The translations under genes and the position numbers were made by a program. Source: a candidate division FCPU426 bacterium (GTDB lineage Bacteria; Oederibacteriota; Muellerivitia; Muellerivitales; Muellerivitaceae). Taken from it: a stretch of DNA of 45,261 nt. Shown piece by piece: positions 37,488-45,173 of this stretch (positions are counted from its first letter, which is position 1; every line of letters starts with the position of its first letter). The DNA is taken from positions 1 through 45,261 of the forward strand of contig CAWKAR010000030.1 of NCBI GenBank assembly GCA_963847625.1. The letters are read 5' to 3'. The notes under the pieces were generated by a model that did not search any database, was not told the origin of the DNA, and worked only from the letters and a program-made list of their open reading frames with translations.

Positions 37488-40310
37488 ATGGATAGTCAGA
37501 AAACCAGTTTATATAGAAGTGTTATGGGTCTTTTGGTCTTCAGCACCGCGGTCTATTTCTGCCTGGGCGCCGCCGGTTCCGGTCCCCATTCCAAGGTTCA
37601 ACCTCCGGCTCAATCCCGGTACACCCAAGCGCATCCCGCCAGCCAGATACAATTCAACCAAGCCTACGGCAAACTTCCCCTTTACTTCGAGCCCAACCTG
37701 GGCCAGGTCCGTTCAACAGTTTCAGGACAAGCCGACCCGCAAGTGAGGTTCGTTTCCAGGGGAAGCGGCTATTCCCTTTTCGTCACTCCCCGCGAGGCGG
37801 TGCTGGTCCTGAAAAAACCAAACAAAGAACTTTCATCCCAAAAGCGTAAAGGCCTGGGATTCCGGCTTCCCAATCCTCACCCCTCACCCTCATATGATGT
37901 CCTGCGCATGAGGCTGGAAGGGGCCGATCCCAAGGCCGAATGGCGCGGTGAGGAGAAGATGGAAGGAACGGCCAATTACTTCCTCGGCAATGATCCTTCG
38001 AGGTGGCGGACGAAAGTTCCCATGTACGCCAAAGTGAAAGCCCAGAATGTCTATCCCGGCATCGACATGGTTTATTACGGCAGCCAAAGGCAGTTGGAAT
38101 ACGACTTTGTCGTGAACCCCGGCGCCGACCCGGGCGCCATCGAGTTGACATATGAGGGCGCGAAGGAGGCGGAAATCGACGATCAAGGGAACCTTGTCCT
38201 GAAAGCCCCCGGCGGGAATGTATCCTTCAAGACCCCCCGGATTTATCAACCTACCGCCGAAGGAGAGGTCAATGTGACCGGCCGTTATGTCCCGAGGGGT
38301 GAAAACAAATTCGGATTCGAGTTGGGGGCATACGACAAGACCGGGCCCTTGGTGATCGATCCGGCATTGGCCCTGGCTTATTCCACCTATCTCGGCGGAA
38401 TCCAACAGGATAATGGCGCCAGAATAGTCGTGGACGCGGGCGGGTACGCCTACGTGACCGGTTTTGGGGGTTCCGCCTTCCCGACGACACCCGGGGCGTT
38501 CCAAACGGCATACGGAGGGGTATGGATCGACGCTTATGTGTCCAAGTTAAGTCCGGATGGTTCGACTCTTCTTTATTCGACCTATCTGGGGGGGAACACC
38601 GATGACCGGGGCCAGGACATCGCACTGGATTCGAAAGGGGATGCTTTCATTACCGGATGGACCGCTTCCGCGAATTTTCCCACCACCCCAGGCGCTTATC
38701 AAACCGTCTTAAGTGGAAGTAATGACGCCATTGTGGCTGAAATCGATCCGACTGGTTCGTCGTTGCTTTATTCAACATATCTGGGCGGCACGGGCGATGA
38801 CGGCGGTTACGGAATCGCCCTGGACGCGAATGGCGGGATTTACGTGACGGGGTATGCCAGCGCCGGTTTTCCCACCACCACGGGAGCCTACCAAACCGCT
38901 ATTCCGGGAACTTACGCCAGCTTCGTGGCCAAATTGAACCCCAACGGATTTGGTAGCGCGGACCTGGTTTATTCCACCTATTTGGGGCCATCTTATTATA
39001 CGTACGGGGGTTATGGGATCGCGGTGGATGCCGCCGGCAACGCACTTGTGGCAGGATGCGCCCAAGCGGGGTTCCCCACCACCGCCGGCGCGTATCAAAC
39101 GGCCTTTGGCACATACTCACACGACCCTTTCTTGACCAAGCTGAACGCCGACGGATCGGCTTTGCTCTATTCCACTTTTATAGGGTATTGGTTTGGCCTT
39201 GCCCTGGCGGTGGACGGGAACGGCGATGCCTACATGACCGGATATTCCGGGACGGGTTTTCCCACAACACCGGGTGCCTTCCAAACGGTCGATATCAGCG
39301 GCGGACTTATCGCCTATGTAGCCAAGATTCACCCCGCGGGGGGCGGAACCGCGGACTTGGTCTATTCGACTTATTTGACATCGAGCGGCGGCGATGTGGT
39401 GGGTATGGGCATCGCGGTGGACTCAAGCGGGGACGCCTACGTGACCGGAACCGCGGACCCGGGGTTCACCATAACAGCGGGGGCCTTGCAAACAGCCGCT
39501 CTAGCCCCCGAATATAATTCCTTCATAGCCGAGTTGAACCCGGGCGGATCTGCCCTCATCTATTCGACTTACTTGTCCGGGACCATAGATACCGTCAGCG
39601 AGGGCATCACGGTCGACTCAAGCGGAGGGATCTATGTGACGGGATACACCGATACTGGTTTTCCCATGACCTCGGGTGCCTACCAAACGATTTATGGCGG
39701 CGGTTTTAGCGACGTCTTCGTAACTAAATTAGGTGGAGGACCTTTTATTACACCCACGGCGACGCTTACTCCGGCGATCACCAACACACCTCCCCCCACT
39801 AACACACCCACGAACACGCCTACGCCTACCAACACGCCGACTGTCACCTCGACTCCAACAATTACCAATACCCCCACGGTGACCCTTACGCCTACGGCCA
39901 CCAACTCACCTACTCAAACCCGGACACCGACGAATACCTCGTCCCCCACCGCAACCCCTATTCCGGCTTCCACATCCACATCAACTGTTACCCCGACGCC
40001 GACCTCAACACCCCTTCCTTCCTGCGACGAGTTCTACATCTCAAAAAACGCGTACTTCCCATCTAACGGGCCCATCTCGATCTACGTCTCTTATTGCCAG
40101 TATCCCGGTAATTACTCTTTGAAGGTTTATAACTCAGCGGGAGAACACATCAAAACCTTGGATGAGCAGTATTTAGAAGCGCCTATTGCCGCATCTTACC
40201 AATGGGATGGGAAAAACAAATACGGGGACCCCTGCGCCAGCGGAGTCTATATCTTTTACCTGGTCGAGCCTTACAACCGCCACATGAAAAGGGTGCTTCT
40301 TTTAAAGTAA
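37488..40310 (+). CDS. SBBP-repeat surface protein with a Thr/Pro stalk and a FlgD-Ig/T9SS-like C-terminal domain
   Basis: The N-domain reads 'LPLYFEPNLGQ...NYFLGNDP..W...YPGID..YYG...LEYDFVV'. It is followed by repeats 'YSTYLGG...IAVD..G.AYVTG...FPTT.GAYQT' and a ~90-aa TPT tract. The C-terminus reads 'LKVYNSAGEHIKTL...WDGKN..G...ASGVYI'. Confidence 0.9.
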   Translation: MDSQKTSLYRSVMGLLVFSTAVYFCLGAAGSGPHSKVQPPAQSRYTQAHPASQIQFNQAYGKLPLYFEPNLGQVRSTVSGQADPQVRFVSRGSGYSLFVTPREAVLVLKKPNKELSSQKRKGLGFRLPNPHPSPSYDVLRMRLEGADPKAEWRGEEKMEGTANYFLGNDPSRWRTKVPMYAKVKAQNVYPGIDMVYYGSQRQLEYDFVVNPGADPGAIELTYEGAKEAEIDDQGNLVLKAPGGNVSFKTPRIYQPTAEGEVNVTGRYVPRGENKFGFELGAYDKTGPLVIDPALALAYSTYLGGIQQDNGARIVVDAGGYAYVTGFGGSAFPTTPGAFQTAYGGVWIDAYVSKLSPDGSTLLYSTYLGGNTDDRGQDIALDSKGDAFITGWTASANFPTTPGAYQTVLSGSNDAIVAEIDPTGSSLLYSTYLGGTGDDGGYGIALDANGGIYVTGYASAGFPTTTGAYQTAIPGTYASFVAKLNPNGFGSADLVYSTYLGPSYYTYGGYGIAVDAAGNALVAGCAQAGFPTTAGAYQTAFGTYSHDPFLTKLNADGSALLYSTFIGYWFGLALAVDGNGDAYMTGYSGTGFPTTPGAFQTVDISGGLIAYVAKIHPAGGGTADLVYSTYLTSSGGDVVGMGIAVDSSGDAYVTGTADPGFTITAGALQTAALAPEYNSFIAELNPGGSALIYSTYLSGTIDTVSEGITVDSSGGIYVTGYTDTGFPMTSGAYQTIYGGGFSDVFVTKLGGGPFITPTATLTPAITNTPPPTNTPTNTPTPTNTPTVTSTPTITNTPTVTLTPTATNSPTQTRTPTNTSSPTATPIPASTSTSTVTPTPTSTPLPSCDEFYISKNAYFPSNGPISIYVSYCQYPGNYSLKVYNSAGEHIKTLDEQYLEAPIAASYQWDGKNKYGDPCASGVYIFYLVEPYNRHMKRVLLLK

Positions 40311-40780
40311 AAACCCCCTTCGAGATATAATTAGGCGTGAGAATGAATATGCCGAAAGTATCTAAGAAAAATATGCGGCTCTTGAACGCAGGTTTATTCA
40401 CCTGCGTCATCGCGGTATTTGGAATGGGTTTGGTATCCGCAACCCATAACAGTCCTTCCCCCAAAAAGCCCCAAACTTCCCCAAAAAGTGCCCAACCGAA
40501 TCAACTGACTCAACTTAAAATCAACCAAAATTATGGGCATATTCCCCTCTACTTCGAGCCCAACGAAGGTCAGTCAGACCCTCAAGTCAAATTCATTTCC
40601 CGTGGAAGCGGCTATTCCCTTTTCCTCACCCCCGCCGAAGCGGTGTTTGCTTTAAGAAGTGGATCGCCTAAAGACTTATCACCGAAAGCCGGGGTCCTTG
40701 GCTATAAATTCCGAATTCCTAATTCCAAATTCCTGCTATGAGGCCGTTCGTCAAGCCCCGTGATTTTATTGAATGGTCCA

Positions 40781-40924
40781 AAGTTTTCGTGAATTCATCC
40801 TGCTATTCGTGCTCAAGGCACATGATAAGATCCGATACGTAATAAAGGGAGCCACCACCTAATGGGCGTGTTCTAGACACCGGAATTAGCCGTGGTCATC
40901 CCCAAAAATCGAATCACGAAACTT
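40781..40924 (-). ncRNA. Predicted bridge/seek RNA of the IS110/IS1111-type element
   Basis: An outer stem (40781-40796 with 40911-40924) encloses two internal loops whose strands match the target (CTAATTCC, ATTAG) and the circle junction (ATCTTATC, ATAGCAG). Boundaries are approximate. Confidence 0.8.
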
Positions 40925-40945
40925 AAACCACTCCTTTTAACCTGC

Positions 40946-42013
40946 TTAAGCCAATGGCCGATAAGCCTCTTGCCGAACCAACATTGTCCACAGGTGAACC
41001 AATATCTTCCTAGCCATCGCCACGATGGCCTTATTGGGGCTTCCTGTGTTTCTCGCCAACCTTCCGTAAATCTTCGCCGCCTGCCGATCCACCCGAATCC
41101 AAGCCCAGGCGCTTTCCAACAAAGCCGATCTCAAATGATTTTTCCCTGCTTTTAGTAATGGCCCTTCCTTCCGGCTTTCCCCACTTTGCCTCACTCGGGG
41201 TGCCAATCCAACATATGCCACCACTTGTTTCGCGTTCTGGAATCTCTCCGGCTGATACACCTCGGCCAGCATCTGCGCCGCCGTCACTTCTCCGACCCCT
41301 GGATGACTCCTCAATATCCTGGTTTTTTTCTCATAGACCTTCGAGCTGTATTGCTCCTTGATTTGGTCTTTCACCTTTCCCAGTTGATCTTCCAGGTAAT
41401 AAAACTCCTCCAAAAACCTATCCAGCGTGAAACGCAGCGCCTTATTCAATTCGATCTTTCCAAGAGCCTTCACGGCTTTCCGTGACCAATGGCTCAGACC
41501 TTCCGGTTCCTCAAGGCCGTATTGCAAGAGAAAACCCTTAATTTGCTGTTTCACACGCCTTCTCTTCTCTACCAATGAACTCCTCAGCCTCAATACCTGG
41601 CGGTATGCTTCCTCTTCTACGGTCGGTATCACTACCGCCCGCAATAGCCCCTTCTCCGCGTATTCGGCAAGCATCCGGCAGTCCAGGCGGTCTGACTTGG
41701 CCCCTTCCACAACCGATCTGGGAATCTTTCCAGGGGCAACTACCTCTACCGGTATTCCAACATCTTTCAGCCGCCTCGCTAATCCATATCCCGTGGGGCC
41801 GGCTTCGTACACCACTTTCCGCAAACCTAGCTGGTACTTCTCCAAAAATCTTTTTACGACCTCACGATCAGCCGGCAGGGATTTTATCCCAGCCTCAACC
41901 CCATTCACTCTGACTGCCGCGTAAATACTGCGTTTGTGCACATCTAAACCAACGTAAACGCAGTCTTTCTTGGTGATACCAACCCTTCTTTCCACTGTGC
42001 TACTATTTCTCAT
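40946..42013 (-). CDS. IS110-family DEDD recombinase/transposase
   Basis: RuvC-like DEDD residues in 'VGLDVHK', 'YEAG' and 'KSDRLD'. Also 'PGVG', 'YVGLAP..RQSG' (catalytic Ser) and 'AIVAMARK'. Confidence 0.96.
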   Translation of the reverse strand: MRNSSTVERRVGITKKDCVYVGLDVHKRSIYAAVRVNGVEAGIKSLPADREVVKRFLEKYQLGLRKVVYEAGPTGYGLARRLKDVGIPVEVVAPGKIPRSVVEGAKSDRLDCRMLAEYAEKGLLRAVVIPTVEEEAYRQVLRLRSSLVEKRRRVKQQIKGFLLQYGLEEPEGLSHWSRKAVKALGKIELNKALRFTLDRFLEEFYYLEDQLGKVKDQIKEQYSSKVYEKKTRILRSHPGVGEVTAAQMLAEVYQPERFQNAKQVVAYVGLAPRVRQSGESRKEGPLLKAGKNHLRSALLESAWAWIRVDRQAAKIYGRLARNTGSPNKAIVAMARKILVHLWTMLVRQEAYRPLA

Positions 42014-42246
42014 GCCGTTCCTCCTTAAGAGCTAGACACTCCTGCCGGGATTCTATCCCGGCGGGAGGAACGGCCTGCATGTTATCTAATTCCAAAAACC
42101 TCACTCCCAACTCCCCCAGCCGTTCTGCGTCTGAGGCTCGAGGGAGGCAACCGAAAAGCCGAGTTCGAAGCCCTCGAAGAAGCTCCGGGAAAGAGTAATT
42201 ACTTCATCGGCTGTAGTGTTCACAAAATATCTTCCGGAATTTCCTG

Positions 42247-43257
42247 TTAAGCACGACAATTTTTTCCGCCCCTCAGAATGTTAATCAAGTGATTTTTCTC
42301 AAGTGTTTCGTAAATAGCTAACCGCTCCGCTTTTCGTTTTTCTCTGGGTGTTTCACCTCCTTGTACCGCTTTTTTAATATTCCTGCAAGCTTCCAGGTAG
42401 AAAGTCTCCCGATCAACCAGCGAAGGGCCTTTCACAAGGCTGTTTTCAAGCTGCTGGGCGCTCTGATAACCTTTGCTGGCCCTAGGTCGGCCATCTAGCA
42501 GGTGCCACGTTTTCGCTAAGCACGATACTGCTTCTTGCACAGCACGAAATCCAACCCCTTTTTCCAGGCTGGATTCCGCCTTTATTTCGCCGATTCCTCG
42601 CTCAGCGGCCCCATTGTCCTGCGGTGTTCGGGGTCGAGAAAGCAGATGAATCACTTTTTCGTGTCGTAGGTAGTCTGTTAATTTTTCGTTTTTGTAGGCC
42701 GAACCATTGTCGGTCGACCAAACCAAAGGCAGTCCTGTTTTCTTTTTTTGCAGCTCCAACATGGTCAATATATTTTCTGCTTTAGCAGCGGGTCCGACTG
42801 CCAGACCCTTAAAACCCAAAGTCGCTCGATCTTTGATTACTTCTGCCTGCAATGCTACTTTTCCAACACGCCCAATGTGCGCCGCGTCCTGCGCCCAGAT
42901 CACATCTTTTGCCAACACCTCTACGCTCACCCGGTTTTTCTCGGCCAACTCCCTCAACTTTTTCCTGTGTCTCGCCTTTATTTGGGACAGGCTTTCCTGC
43001 ACCAACCTCGTCGATACTTTGCCGCGAAGGATGGCCGCAATAGATCTCCATCCTGTAGTCCAACCAAAATCCCTCACTTGACGCCTTACTGCCAACTTAG
43101 CCCGATACCTTGCACTCGCGGAATACGCGGGGCGTCCCTGTTTTCTTTTTTGATTATGCGCCCCGCGAATCCAATTATTCAGCGTCCTCTCACTCACCTG
43201 AAGTTGGCTGGATAGAAGCTTCCGTTGGCCCCGGCAATTTTTCTTCCCCAACAACAT
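42247..43257 (-). CDS. DDE integrase-core (rve) transposase-like protein with an N-terminal HTH
   Basis: Motifs 'LQVSERTLNNW', 'IWAQD', 'STDNGSAY' and 'PRTPQDNGAAER'. Confidence 0.8.
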   Translation of the reverse strand: MLLGKKNCRGQRKLLSSQLQVSERTLNNWIRGAHNQKRKQGRPAYSASARYRAKLAVRRQVRDFGWTTGWRSIAAILRGKVSTRLVQESLSQIKARHRKKLRELAEKNRVSVEVLAKDVIWAQDAAHIGRVGKVALQAEVIKDRATLGFKGLAVGPAAKAENILTMLELQKKKTGLPLVWSTDNGSAYKNEKLTDYLRHEKVIHLLSRPRTPQDNGAAERGIGEIKAESSLEKGVGFRAVQEAVSCLAKTWHLLDGRPRASKGYQSAQQLENSLVKGPSLVDRETFYLEACRNIKKAVQGGETPREKRKAERLAIYETLEKNHLINILRGGKNCRA

Positions 43258-43762
43258 TCCCGCTTGCCGGGCGAACCACCTTGGGCTTCTTTTTTTTCCC
43301 TCCCAACTCCTCCGCTTTTTTTAACACTTCCCGATTACCCGGCAGCTCCCTCAATAGCTTCACCAGGTCTTTCATTAGATCAAGGTCCCGTTCTAGGTTC
43401 TGGATTTTTTTGTTCAGTTGCTTCGGGTCCTCCTCCGGTGGCAAGGCCTCCCTCATCTTTTTCTTGCCTGCCTTGGGTTGCTTCACCAACCCCGCCGCCA
43501 GGCCCGCCAACGCTTGTTGGGACAATTGCCACACTCGCAACGGTGGTATTTCCAGTTTCTGCGCCGCTTCCTCCTTCGTGACGCGACCCATCCAATATTC
43601 CAACATCACCGCCGCCGTTTGGTGCGCTTTCTCCTTCTCCTGCAGACTTGCCGTTTCCCACAAGGCCTTCATTGGCAATGCCACATTCATTTGAAACTTG
43701 AATTTTCTCTTCATGCGGCCCTTGGAAATCCGTTTCTTTTCGCCCTTCTCGGCCTCTTCCAT
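43190..43762 (-). CDS. Small HTH/coiled-coil accessory protein (OrfA-like)
   Basis: AGGAGG RBS, an HTH-like 'VTKEEAAQKLEIPPLRVWQL' and a coiled-coil 'LNKKIQNLERDLDLMKDLVKLL'. Confidence 0.65.
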   Translation of the reverse strand: MEEAEKGEKKRISKGRMKRKFKFQMNVALPMKALWETASLQEKEKAHQTAAVMLEYWMGRVTKEEAAQKLEIPPLRVWQLSQQALAGLAAGLVKQPKAGKKKMREALPPEEDPKQLNKKIQNLERDLDLMKDLVKLLRELPGNREVLKKAEELGGKKKKPKVVRPASGNVVGEEKLPGPTEASIQPTSGE

Positions 43763-45173
43763 TGGTATCCTCCTGGATTTTCACGCCCAAACCATTCAAC
43801 CCTAGTTCTTGTACACGTCCATCCGGCGTCTGGATAACTACTTTCCCTTTCTCCCCATGCATGGACACTTGTTGGTCCCCAATTTGACCCACCAAATATA
43901 CCGGCTTCCTTGGTTCTTCACCTACAGCCAAACGCAATTCGTTCTTTTGCATGGCCGCTTCCAGCGCTTTTCTGACCTCATTTTCCACCCCGAAAAACCG
44001 ATCCGCTGGCACCATTCCATCGATTCCCTGATGTGGCCGAAAATGATTGTAGTGGTTGATGAAATGCCCCAATCGTTCCTTTGCCTCGGCTAAATCCTGT
44101 GGCTGATATCGTCCCCAGAATTCTTCCATGACCGTTGCCCAGAAACGCTCAGTCTTTCCAACCGTCTGTGGATGATGAGTACGCGCAACCACGTGCTGGA
44201 TACCTTTTTTACGCAAGAGCCGTTGGAAATCGCCTTTCCCGCGCCAAGCGAAATACTGCCGCCCTTGGTCTGTGAGAACTTCCTTGGGTTGCCCAAACCG
44301 GTCTATTCCCGAAAGAAGAGCCTCAACCACGATTTCTTGTTTTTGTTGAAAGGCCAGTCTCCAAGAAACAATGTACCGACTGTAGTCATCCAGGAACACA
44401 GTCAAGTAAACCCGTTGCCCGTATCGAGGGAGGACGAAACTCGTGATGTCGCTTTGCCACAAGTCCCCCGCGCGAGACCGCTCAAAACGCCGAGGTAGTT
44501 GTGACTTTTCCCGTCTTCTCTTCATCCTCCCGCTTGGATATCCTTTGCCTTTGAGAGCGTTACGGACACTGCTGGTACTTACCCTGACGCCGGCGATTCG
44601 GCCTAGAAAATTTTTCACTTTCCTCAAACCAAAATCCGGATTTTCTTGTTTTACCTTCTCAATGAGTTCCCGCACTCCTTTTCGCCGGGGTCGGCCACCG
44701 GGTTTTCTGCCCTCAAGGGCTTTAGGCCCTCCAGTTCGGTACTTCTGAAGCCAACCTTCCAGTGTGTTTTCGCTTACGCCCCATACTCTTGCGAAATCAT
44801 GGACTGACGATCCAGATTTCATGAACATTTCCACAGCCTGTCGACGTTCTTCCGGCTTGAATGGCCCATCGTGGTGTCCTGATACGAGATATTGGTTGTG
44901 CCGCTTTCTCATCCACTCCTCGCCCTCAATCCGATACTTCTTTAGCCAGCAATTAAAGGTCGAACCATTTATTCCATGGGTGATGCAAAAGGATCGCTGG
45001 GAACCACCGATTTTCAGGTATTCCTTGACCAAAAACAGACGCTTTTCAAGGCTGTCCACAGGTTCTTCTCCCTGTGTTGGCATCAAAGGTGGGTTATGCG
45101 AATTGATTTGTATGGGTGTGCTAAGTGAAGGAACTGCTTCTGCTTGATCTGATTGCTGCTGCTTTTCGTCCAT
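43380..45173 (-). CDS. IS481-like DDE transposase with tandem HTH domains
   Basis: HTHs 'HGINGSTFNCWLKKY' and 'WGVSENTLEGWLQKY'. DDE motifs 'LWQSDIT', 'LTDQGRQ' and 'PQTVGKTER', plus 'YNHFRPHQGIDGMVPADRF'. Confidence 0.9.
   Translation of the reverse strand: MDEKQQQSDQAEAVPSLSTPIQINSHNPPLMPTQGEEPVDSLEKRLFLVKEYLKIGGSQRSFCITHGINGSTFNCWLKKYRIEGEEWMRKRHNQYLVSGHHDGPFKPEERRQAVEMFMKSGSSVHDFARVWGVSENTLEGWLQKYRTGGPKALEGRKPGGRPRRKGVRELIEKVKQENPDFGLRKVKNFLGRIAGVRVSTSSVRNALKGKGYPSGRMKRRREKSQLPRRFERSRAGDLWQSDITSFVLPRYGQRVYLTVFLDDYSRYIVSWRLAFQQKQEIVVEALLSGIDRFGQPKEVLTDQGRQYFAWRGKGDFQRLLRKKGIQHVVARTHHPQTVGKTERFWATVMEEFWGRYQPQDLAEAKERLGHFINHYNHFRPHQGIDGMVPADRFFGVENEVRKALEAAMQKNELRLAVGEEPRKPVYLVGQIGDQQVSMHGEKGKVVIQTPDGRVQELGLNGLGVKIQEDTNGRGREGRKETDFQGPHEEKIQVSNECGIANEGLVGNGKSAGEGESAPNGGGDVGILDGSRHEGGSGAETGNTTVASVAIVPTSVGGPGGGVGEATQGRQEKDEGGLATGGGPEATEQKNPEPRTGP

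Follow-up and report, generated by a model that had tools for sequence, protein, structure and literature searches.

An IS1111-type element in a candidate division FCPU426 genome and the predicted guide RNA downstream of its transposase gene

We analyzed a 45,261-nt stretch of DNA from a candidate division FCPU426 bacterium (assembly GCA_963847625.1, contig CAWKAR010000030.1; hereafter the window), which carries a 1351-bp insertion sequence (IS) of the IS1111 type on the minus strand of positions 40735-42085. An earlier note, made from the letters of the window, had proposed that this element specifies a bridge or seek RNA with four guide segments fitting its own target and donor. We hold it to be highly probable that 40735-42085 is an intact and recently active IS1111-type element, and that the tail downstream of its gene is transcribed in the gene sense as a three-way-junction guide RNA with target and donor recognition. 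Statements on published systems refer to excerpts of the cited papers.

The dinucleotide core CT (+ strand; AG in element orientation) is present at both junctions of the element, at 40733-40734 and 42086-42087, where the + strand reads CAAATTC-CT-GCTATG and ATGTTAT-CT-AATTCC, respectively. The empty target and the circle junction put forward in the earlier note both follow from these CT-flanked junctions. In its own genome, the 1.35-kb element was found three times at 100% identity, with CT on both sides of each copy where identity ends; the flanks of the two further copies are TTCTAATTC-CT..CT-AATTCCC and TCATAATTC-CT..CT-AATTCGG. On the strand of the element, the sites of the three copies are GGAATT-AG-GAATTTG, GGAATT-AG-GAATTAG and CGAATT-AG-GAATTAT, and the target consists of two units of a 7-bp tandem repeat. 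Three identical copies at different sites that share a core and a target consensus speak for recent activity of the element. The gene split by the copy in the window is a DUF7948 surface-protein gene, whose frame is restored on excision of the element together with one CT; the frame continues into the right flank, whose translation can be aligned to residues 132-167 of an intact paralogue located just upstream (E 7e-09). When the left flank was searched in four related genomes, the orthologous gene was 69-76% identical and the match ended before the insertion point; the empty site was therefore reconstructed from the three copies and the restored frame.

Structure of the predicted guide RNA

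Relatives of the element were taken as DNA from one GTDB genome locus, obtained by a single-protein scan of genome contigs, and from 79 metagenome loci, 17 of them at least 39% identical; two loci on viral contigs are 42-43% identical. Within its own phylum, the element occurs in four of 98 other genomes, with full copies in G067 (four), G048 (two), G066 (one) and G040 (one). We aligned the regions downstream of the gene from 16 elements and ran RNAalifold, which recovered three features unaided: the closing stem (P1), a long outer stem that encloses the first pair of guides, and a small hairpin that precedes ATAGCAG. In the 31-pair structure scored on this alignment, 81.4% of the cells were standard pairs, compared with 31-48% after the partners had been displaced by 1-3 columns; column shuffles gave 72.2%, and none of them (0 of 500) reached the observed value. 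Both sides were changed in 17 of the 31 pairs. Among the 16 relatives, this was the case for 8 of 11 pairs of P1 and for 7 of 10 pairs of the outer stem, which was paired in 88% of its cells, while the four pairs of the donor-side hairpin were invariant or nearly so in 16 sequences and are by themselves uninformative on structure. The duplex energy of P1 averaged -14.5 kcal/mol, versus -7.4 kcal/mol for shuffled sequences (22 sequences). As G.U cells outnumbered A.C cells by 39 to 20, the strand of the gene is favoured as the sense of the RNA.

Overall, the alignment points to an RNA that is a three-way junction, made of P1, a target-binding arm (outer stem, internal loop and hairpin) and a second small hairpin. 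An IS621-like donor internal loop, closed by a stem between the linker and the 3' strand, was also considered and rejected: its duplex energy was -6.0 kcal/mol versus -4.5 kcal/mol for shuffled sequences (n = 22). Because this alternative donor arm is unsupported by duplex energy, the donor segments are placed in the multiloop of the three-way junction. What the earlier note called "loop 2" is therefore no internal loop but a pair of segments on either side of a hairpin within the junction.

A covariance model, R1, was built from the 16-element alignment and run over 96 sources. It gave 24 matches across 22 sources, six of them outside the training set, always on the strand of the gene and downstream of it. 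In the window, R1 gave a single match, at 40770-40945 on the minus strand (137.5 bits, E 6.4e-30), in agreement with the downstream position given in the earlier note. No match was obtained in 62 loci with more distant transposases (at most 36% identity), and the sole close locus with enough downstream sequence and no R1 match was L020 (transposase 42% identical, 272 nt downstream). As a sequence family, the predicted RNA is specific to its clade, as far as R1 detects it.

Target guides, donor segments and alternative readings

The four strings read in the earlier note, CTAATTCC, ATTAG, ATCTTATC and ATAGCAG, are present in the window at the positions given there (Table 1), and its match counts of 7/8, 5/5, 7/8 and 7/7 were reproduced. 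CTAATTCC matched the sites of the three copies at 7/8 (this copy), 8/8 (L002) and 7/8 (L003), and ATTAG matched all three. Because the target is tandemly repeated, the half-site assignment of CTAATTCC is ambiguous in the window element alone, where the other half-site and core (GGAATT+AG) have exactly this sequence as their reverse complement; the half-site that it is predicted to read is settled only through relatives with non-repetitive targets. Loop strings were taken from the model alignment and scored, as the best ungapped window, against the element's own flanks and those of every other element, with 20000 permutations per segment, whose counts overstate significance as the relatives are non-independent. 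The 5' target guide matched the reverse complement of core and right flank at a mean of 6.45 of 8 positions in cognate pairs and 3.91 (standard deviation 1.00) in non-cognate pairs (n = 20, 0/20000 permutations), a test that left aside L009 (right flank cut off) and L011 (another left end in place of the flank). For the 3' target guide against left flank and core, the means were 6.11 of 7 in cognate and 4.33 in non-cognate pairs (n = 18, 0/20000); this test and that of the 5' donor segment left aside L016, L017, L019 and L022, whose contigs lack the left end. The 5' guide of the window, at 7/8, is above the chance level of 3.91 ± 1.00 of 8, and seven elements reached 8/8 (L012, L013, L015, L016, L019, L021 and L023). 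L015, which has an AA core at both junctions, shows the letters that fit this core in each of its target guides. Covariation of the target guides with each element's own flanks is thus shown, and argues for target recognition by the RNA. The earlier note had named identical loops in homologs with different targets as a finding that would speak against a guide function; we observed the opposite, with loops that differ and track their own flanks.

Some elements depart from the common pattern. Most elements have an AG core; L015 has AA, and L016 has GG at its right-end junction, with a 5' guide that ends in CC. The match register, as read by eye, is shifted by one nucleotide in L008, L013, L090 and L021. 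In L088 and L093 (G048), the left junction has AG and the right one AA, the right flank fits the 5' guide poorly (4/8) and the left flank fits at 7/7; these may be off-target insertions, or a core mismatch may have been present at insertion. In the element's own genome, the ideal target has no exact copy, and 24 sites with one mismatch were counted versus about 16 expected from base composition, which is no strong numerical enrichment, though many of these sites lie in heptamer arrays. Short arrays of the 7-bp repeat (GGAATTA, with the variants GGAATGA and GGAATTG) were found at C3, C21, C28, C30, C45, C57 and C60, and the array of C30 corresponds to window positions ~40714-40734, in the linker of the surface-protein gene.

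The donor side leaves more room for another account, in which the RNA seeks the target only, the ends are recognized by the protein through the subterminal repeats, and the donor matches reflect a conserved scaffold that resembles conserved ends. Of the 24 R1 matches, 23 contain ATAGCAG, among them the primary match of each of the 22 sources; the exception, a weak second match in L098, reads AAAAGCAG. The right end CATAGC is the same in all 22. Because both are invariant, the 3' donor segment gives no covariation information and its agreement with CATAGC-AG is uninformative. The 5' donor segment, scored against the reverse complement of core and left end, matched at 5.61 of 8 in cognate pairs and 4.97 in non-cognate pairs (n = 18), an excess of only 0.6 nt, with 4-5 of 8 in 7 of 18 elements. 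Published descriptions can also be aligned with this account: IS1111 elements have long subterminal repeats and IS110-type elements are without them (PMC11187229; PMC11208160), and the seekRNA excerpts describe target matches alone (PMC11187229). Nevertheless, the cognate excess of the 5' donor segment was reached by just 13 of 20000 permutations, the match was 8/8 in L090 and 7/8 in the window, and the donor segments are arranged exactly as those of the target loop, with the right side (as reverse complement) and C first, then a hairpin, then the left side and AG. Moreover, the nucleotide after ATAGCAG is the first target nucleotide right of the core in 13 of 21 elements (20/20000 permutations; in the window, GA matches GA), which would be expected only with this segment at the exchange point. 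We therefore regard an RNA that seeks the target only as improbable, though it is the alternative to which we give the most weight.

A guide RNA with both functions is also consistent with the target side of the same pattern, where, in 15 of 18 elements (1/20000 permutations), the 3' target guide continues beyond the core with the nucleotide that begins the left end of that element. Such a pattern was named "handshake guides" in IS621 (PMC11208158). Covariation of these handshake-like positions is shown here, and their role may be supposed from IS621. Of the proposal that four guide segments fit the element's own target and donor, the matches themselves stand; covariation is strong for the target and weak for the donor (3' segment invariant, 5' segment slight). 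Donor recognition by the RNA, argued by analogy, is consequently less well supported than target recognition.

Apart from the permutation counts and the donor matches already described, several observations weigh against the preferred reading. The window is one of the three exceptions at the target-loop handshake-like position (G versus A), its 3' target guide covers only 5 nt, and the element ends of single-copy relatives were placed by homology. The 5' target guide matched at only 4/8 in 5 of 20 elements (L088, L007, L006 and the first hairpins of L098 and L099). L098 and L099, which lie on viral contigs and have longer right ends, possess second target-loop-like hairpins (2530-2696 and 2642-2842, respectively), in which the 5' guide matches at 7/8 and 8/8 and the 3' guide at 7/7, and with these second hairpins the cognate mean of the 5' guide rises to 6.80. 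Folding of the region, a check suggested in the earlier note, gave the 31-pair structure with covariation when based on the alignment, but a single-sequence fold was no better than shuffles (z -1.85 and z -0.90) and paired both target guides together, as CTAAT and ATTAG can do because the target is tandemly repeated. On IS4321 and on the nearest plasmid-borne relative (38%), R1 gave only spurious low scores and detected no RNA, and an Rfam 15 scan of 40000-43000 at E up to 1 returned only a chance match to a long non-coding RNA elsewhere in that interval. Finally, a scan of 40600-42200 called no sigma-70-like promoter in the integrated element; three terminator-like sites were found in the same interval, all on the + strand and not above shuffles.

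The lack of a promoter call in the integrated copy would suit a reading in which the motifs act as DNA, as transposase-binding sites or right-end hairpins, and a functional RNA does not exist; being perfect inverted repeats, the small hairpins could form, or be bound, as DNA. However, duplex DNA can hardly account for the long-range pairing of P1, which spans ~125 nt and shows compensatory changes. On the gene's strand there are twice as many G.U as A.C cells, and the loops fit both strands of a site external to the element and vary with it. The protein family has, in addition, been found to be RNA-guided by experiment (PMC11187229, PMC11208160), and we judge an action as DNA very unlikely. 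We give slightly less credence still to the idea that the four matches in the window arose by chance, or as a by-product of a low-complexity repetitive target, and are no longer used by the element. A 7-bp tandem-repeat target does ease short matches, and one guide fits both half-sites. Yet non-cognate pairs reach only the chance level given above, the same alignment columns match non-repetitive flanks in relatives (L012, L019 and L023 at 8/8), and the three identical copies argue for recent activity.

Proposed mechanism and comparison with known systems

When the ends of the element were joined in silico, TTGACG of the right end and TAACAT of the left end were brought 17 nt apart, with 9 of 12 consensus positions. 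The same arrangement, in position and spacing, was found at the junction of 13 of 18 elements, and 9 of 18 pass a 9-of-12 rule. A junction promoter is known for this family (review PMC13604230). Expression of the gene, and then of the RNA, is probably driven by the promoter assembled at the circle junction (TTGACG-17 nt-TAACAT). The tail downstream of the gene would then be transcribed in the gene sense and fold into the three-way junction, an architecture supported by covariation. At the target, CTAATTCC would pair with the top strand right of the core and ATTAG with the bottom strand left of the core, including the core AG; by analogy, ATCTTATC and ATAGCAG would act likewise on the circle junction (right end, core, left end). 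The two nucleotides after each 3' segment would match the partner DNA that arrives after strand exchange, as supposed from IS621. From the work on IS621 and ISEc11, a tetramer of the DEDD/Ser transposase may be expected to hold both loops and to exchange strands at the core, and the circle would insert at GAATT-AG-GAATTAG.

This kind of system was described in 2024 under the names seekRNA and bridge RNA; the element is an additional member from a poorly sampled clade, and the mechanism is not new. Like the seekRNAs of ISEc11, ISPa11, ISKpn4 and ISPst6 (Siddiquee et al., 2024, PMC11187229), the predicted RNA lies in a long non-coding region downstream of the gene. The IS1111 elements of that study share with ours the subterminal inverted repeats and the GL-P----SG transposase motif, and their RNAs likewise have two short segments that match opposite target strands and overlap at the insertion point, with the segment complementary to the top strand located 5' of that complementary to the bottom strand (PMC11187229). 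By contrast, sequence homology to IS1111 seekRNAs was undetected (R1 on IS4321 only, whose transposase is 26% identical), and donor-matching segments and handshake-like positions are visible here, whereas the excerpted seekRNA account gives target matches only (PMC11187229). Production of the seekRNA and its co-purification with the protein were shown in that work, whereas the RNA described here is a prediction from sequence.

The IS621 bridge RNA (Durrant et al., 2024, PMC11208160; Hiraizumi et al., 2024, PMC11208158) is similarly bispecific, with a target-binding and a donor-binding part, each containing one segment per DNA strand, and the segments meet at a 2-nt core. Its handshake positions also match the partner DNA after exchange, its core is CT on one strand and its enzyme has DEDD and Ser residues (PMC11208160, PMC11208158). 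The two systems differ in that the RNA is downstream of the gene here and upstream in IS621, with the order of the guides reversed, that here a three-way junction with a long closing stem, and not a second internal loop, contains the donor segments, and that long subterminal repeats are present here. A bridge RNA was predicted in the right end of 93% of the IS1111 elements of ISfinder (Durrant et al., 2024, PMC11208160), and the RNA described here resembles those predictions, for which ISCARN28, ISAzs32 and ISPa11 are named, in its right-end position and 8-14 nt of complementarity. The remark in the same paper that donor nucleotides lie in a multiloop in many IS1111 orthologues fits the architecture found here.

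What is particular here is the clade, the well-supported three-way-junction architecture and the 7-bp tandem-repeat target. More tentatively, and with doubts that outweigh our confidence, the clade may represent a structurally distinct class of bridge RNA without a solved structure, characterized by a clamped three-way junction, twin GUGC/GCAC hairpins, donor guides in the multiloop, two-sided handshakes, a non-fixed core and a register tolerance of 1 nt. If it is true that the RNA and not the protein sets the core, the fixed-core constraint of IS621-type tools would be lifted. The analysis adds a well-documented natural case of RNA-guided recombination from a poorly sampled phylum, with an alignment, a covariance model and ~20 natural guide/target pairs. 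For the engineering of bridge recombinases, it offers family-wide handshake evidence in IS1111-type RNAs, multiloop donor guides and hints of a variable core and register. For annotation, it explains the split surface-protein gene by an element that aims at a 7-bp tandem repeat scattered through the genome.

The element, its transposase and its surroundings

Table 1. Positions of the element, its gene, its ends and the predicted RNA segments in the window
Feature	Positions	Strand	Basis and remarks
Whole IS element	40735..42085	-	3 copies 100% identical with different flanks; ends homologous to those of relatives
Transposase gene, 355 aa	40946..42013	-	DEDD (D24, E70, D108, D111) and GLAPRVRQSG (S277, G278) by alignment
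Left end	42064..42085	-	ATAACAT 42085-42079 (holds -10-like TAACAT 42084-42079), repeat AGGCCGTTC 42076-42068; layout same in 18 relatives
Right end	40735..40754	-	-35-like TTGACG 40754-40749, repeat GAACGGCCT 40749-40741, terminal CATAGC 40740-40735; conserved in relatives
Predicted bridge/seek RNA core, ~137 nt	40785..40921	-	P1 5' strand to P1 3' strand; covariance model R1
P1 closing stem, 5' strand TTTCGTGATTC	40911..40921	-	Pairs with 40785-40796
P1 closing stem, 3' strand GAATTCACGAAA	40785..40796	-	Pair changes and duplex energy
Target-loop outer stem, 5' strand GGGGATGACCAC	40892..40903	-	Pairs with 40846-40855
Target-loop outer stem, 3' strand GTGGCTCCCT	40846..40855	-	Pair changes among relatives
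Predicted 5' target guide CTAATTCC	40882..40889	-	Reverse complement of 7 nt right of core (element orientation) and core C
Target-loop inner hairpin GGTGT..ACACG	40867..40881	-	Conserved GTGY/RCAC stem
Predicted 3' target guide ATTAG and handshake-like GT	40857..40863	-	ATTAG 40863-40859 = 3 nt left of core and core AG; GT 40858-40857
Putative 5' donor segment ATCTTATC	40824..40831	-	Reverse complement of first 7 nt of left end (ATAACAT) and core C; one C-C mismatch
Donor-side hairpin TGTGCC-TTGA-GCACG	40808..40822	-	Same motif as target-loop inner hairpin
Putative 3' donor segment ATAGCAG and handshake-like GA	40798..40806	-	40806-40800 = last 5 nt of right end and core AG; GA 40799-40798

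As proposed in the earlier note, the transposase belongs to the IS110/IS1111 family. It matched the NCBIfam model NF033542, "IS110 family RNA-guided transposase", with 252.3 bits (cut-off 140) over residues 20-349 and profile positions 1-342 of 343, as well as the Pfam domains PF01548 (DEDD_Tnp_IS110, 6e-14) and PF02371 (Transposase_20, 1.8e-26). In an alignment with 39 homologs (40 sequences), D24, E70, D108, D111 and G278 were invariant and S277 was conserved in at least 90%. By analogy, D24, E70, D108, D111 and S277 are putative catalytic residues, matched to D11, E60, D102, D105 and S241 of IS621 (PMC11208158). GLAPRVRQSG, at residues 269-278, is the C-terminal GL-P----S(t)G motif given for the IS1111 group (PMC11187229), whose hallmarks include subterminal inverted repeats and a long non-coding region downstream of the gene (PMC11187229; PMC11208160). 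All three are present: the motif, 9-bp subterminal repeats in the 7-17 bp range (AGGCCGTTC and GAACGGCCT, located 9 and 6 nt inside the ends), and a non-coding region of 211 nt downstream of the gene (40735-40945) versus 72 nt upstream (42014-42085). The transposase of IS4321, a classical IS1111 member, is 26% identical over 80% of the query (tblastn).

Among 8000 candidates scored, 2122 homologs of the transposase were found at E <=1e-30; the closest, 83-86% identical, come from metagenomes, and the plasmid collection held no relative above 38% identity. Solved structures gave only distant matches, ISCro4 and IS621. The former is an IS110-type enzyme that has reportedly been used for human-cell editing. 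The ISCro4 bridge recombinase (PDB 9t56) was the best of these matches (E 2e-18, residues 204-338), a distant one confined to the C-terminal domain, and for IS621 as well the C-terminal domain alone aligns (phmmer E 7.5e-15). The description of the protein as compact does not suit its 355 aa, which are slightly above the 330-350 aa of IS1111 transposases (PMC11187229) and exceed the solved chains of IS621 (328 aa) and ISCro4 (341 aa).

In element orientation, the left end of the relatives reads core, 7 variable nucleotides and G-N-AGGCC, and the right end reads ...GGCCTCATAGC and core. In the window element, an exact 11-bp inverted repeat is formed by GCCGTTCCTCC (42074-42064), in the left subterminal repeat region, and GGAGGAACGGC (42024-42014). 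The latter lies immediately ahead of the transposase start codon and includes the ribosome-binding site; most relatives have the same arrangement. This repeat could mask the transposase start in read-through transcripts. In L011, a metagenome contig, only the core AG separates the right end from the left end of the same element (GTAATATGTAGGCC...), so that the locus represents a tandem dimer or else a circle junction that was assembled. In three of the four full copies of G067 (L087, L092 and L096), the last 17 bp of the right end are duplicated in tandem (GAATGGCCTCATAGCAG twice), and the guide matches the flank after the second unit; in L095, the second unit is incomplete.

Two relics were also found. 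L004 (G000 C3:60040-60179) is a copy with an internal deletion, as the target-like sequence on its flanks shows; what remains is the left end with ~60 nt from the start of the gene (89% identity), fused to AGCAG of the right end. L005 (G000 C13:124078-124112) is a lone 28-bp left end with GAATT-AG in front. On the minus strand of the window, two more transposase genes with integrase-core (rve) domains, at 42247-43257 and 43380-45173, adjoin the element. The one at 42247-43257 lies ~160 bp beyond the left end of the element, inside the same split surface-protein gene, which appears to have been hit at least twice by insertions.

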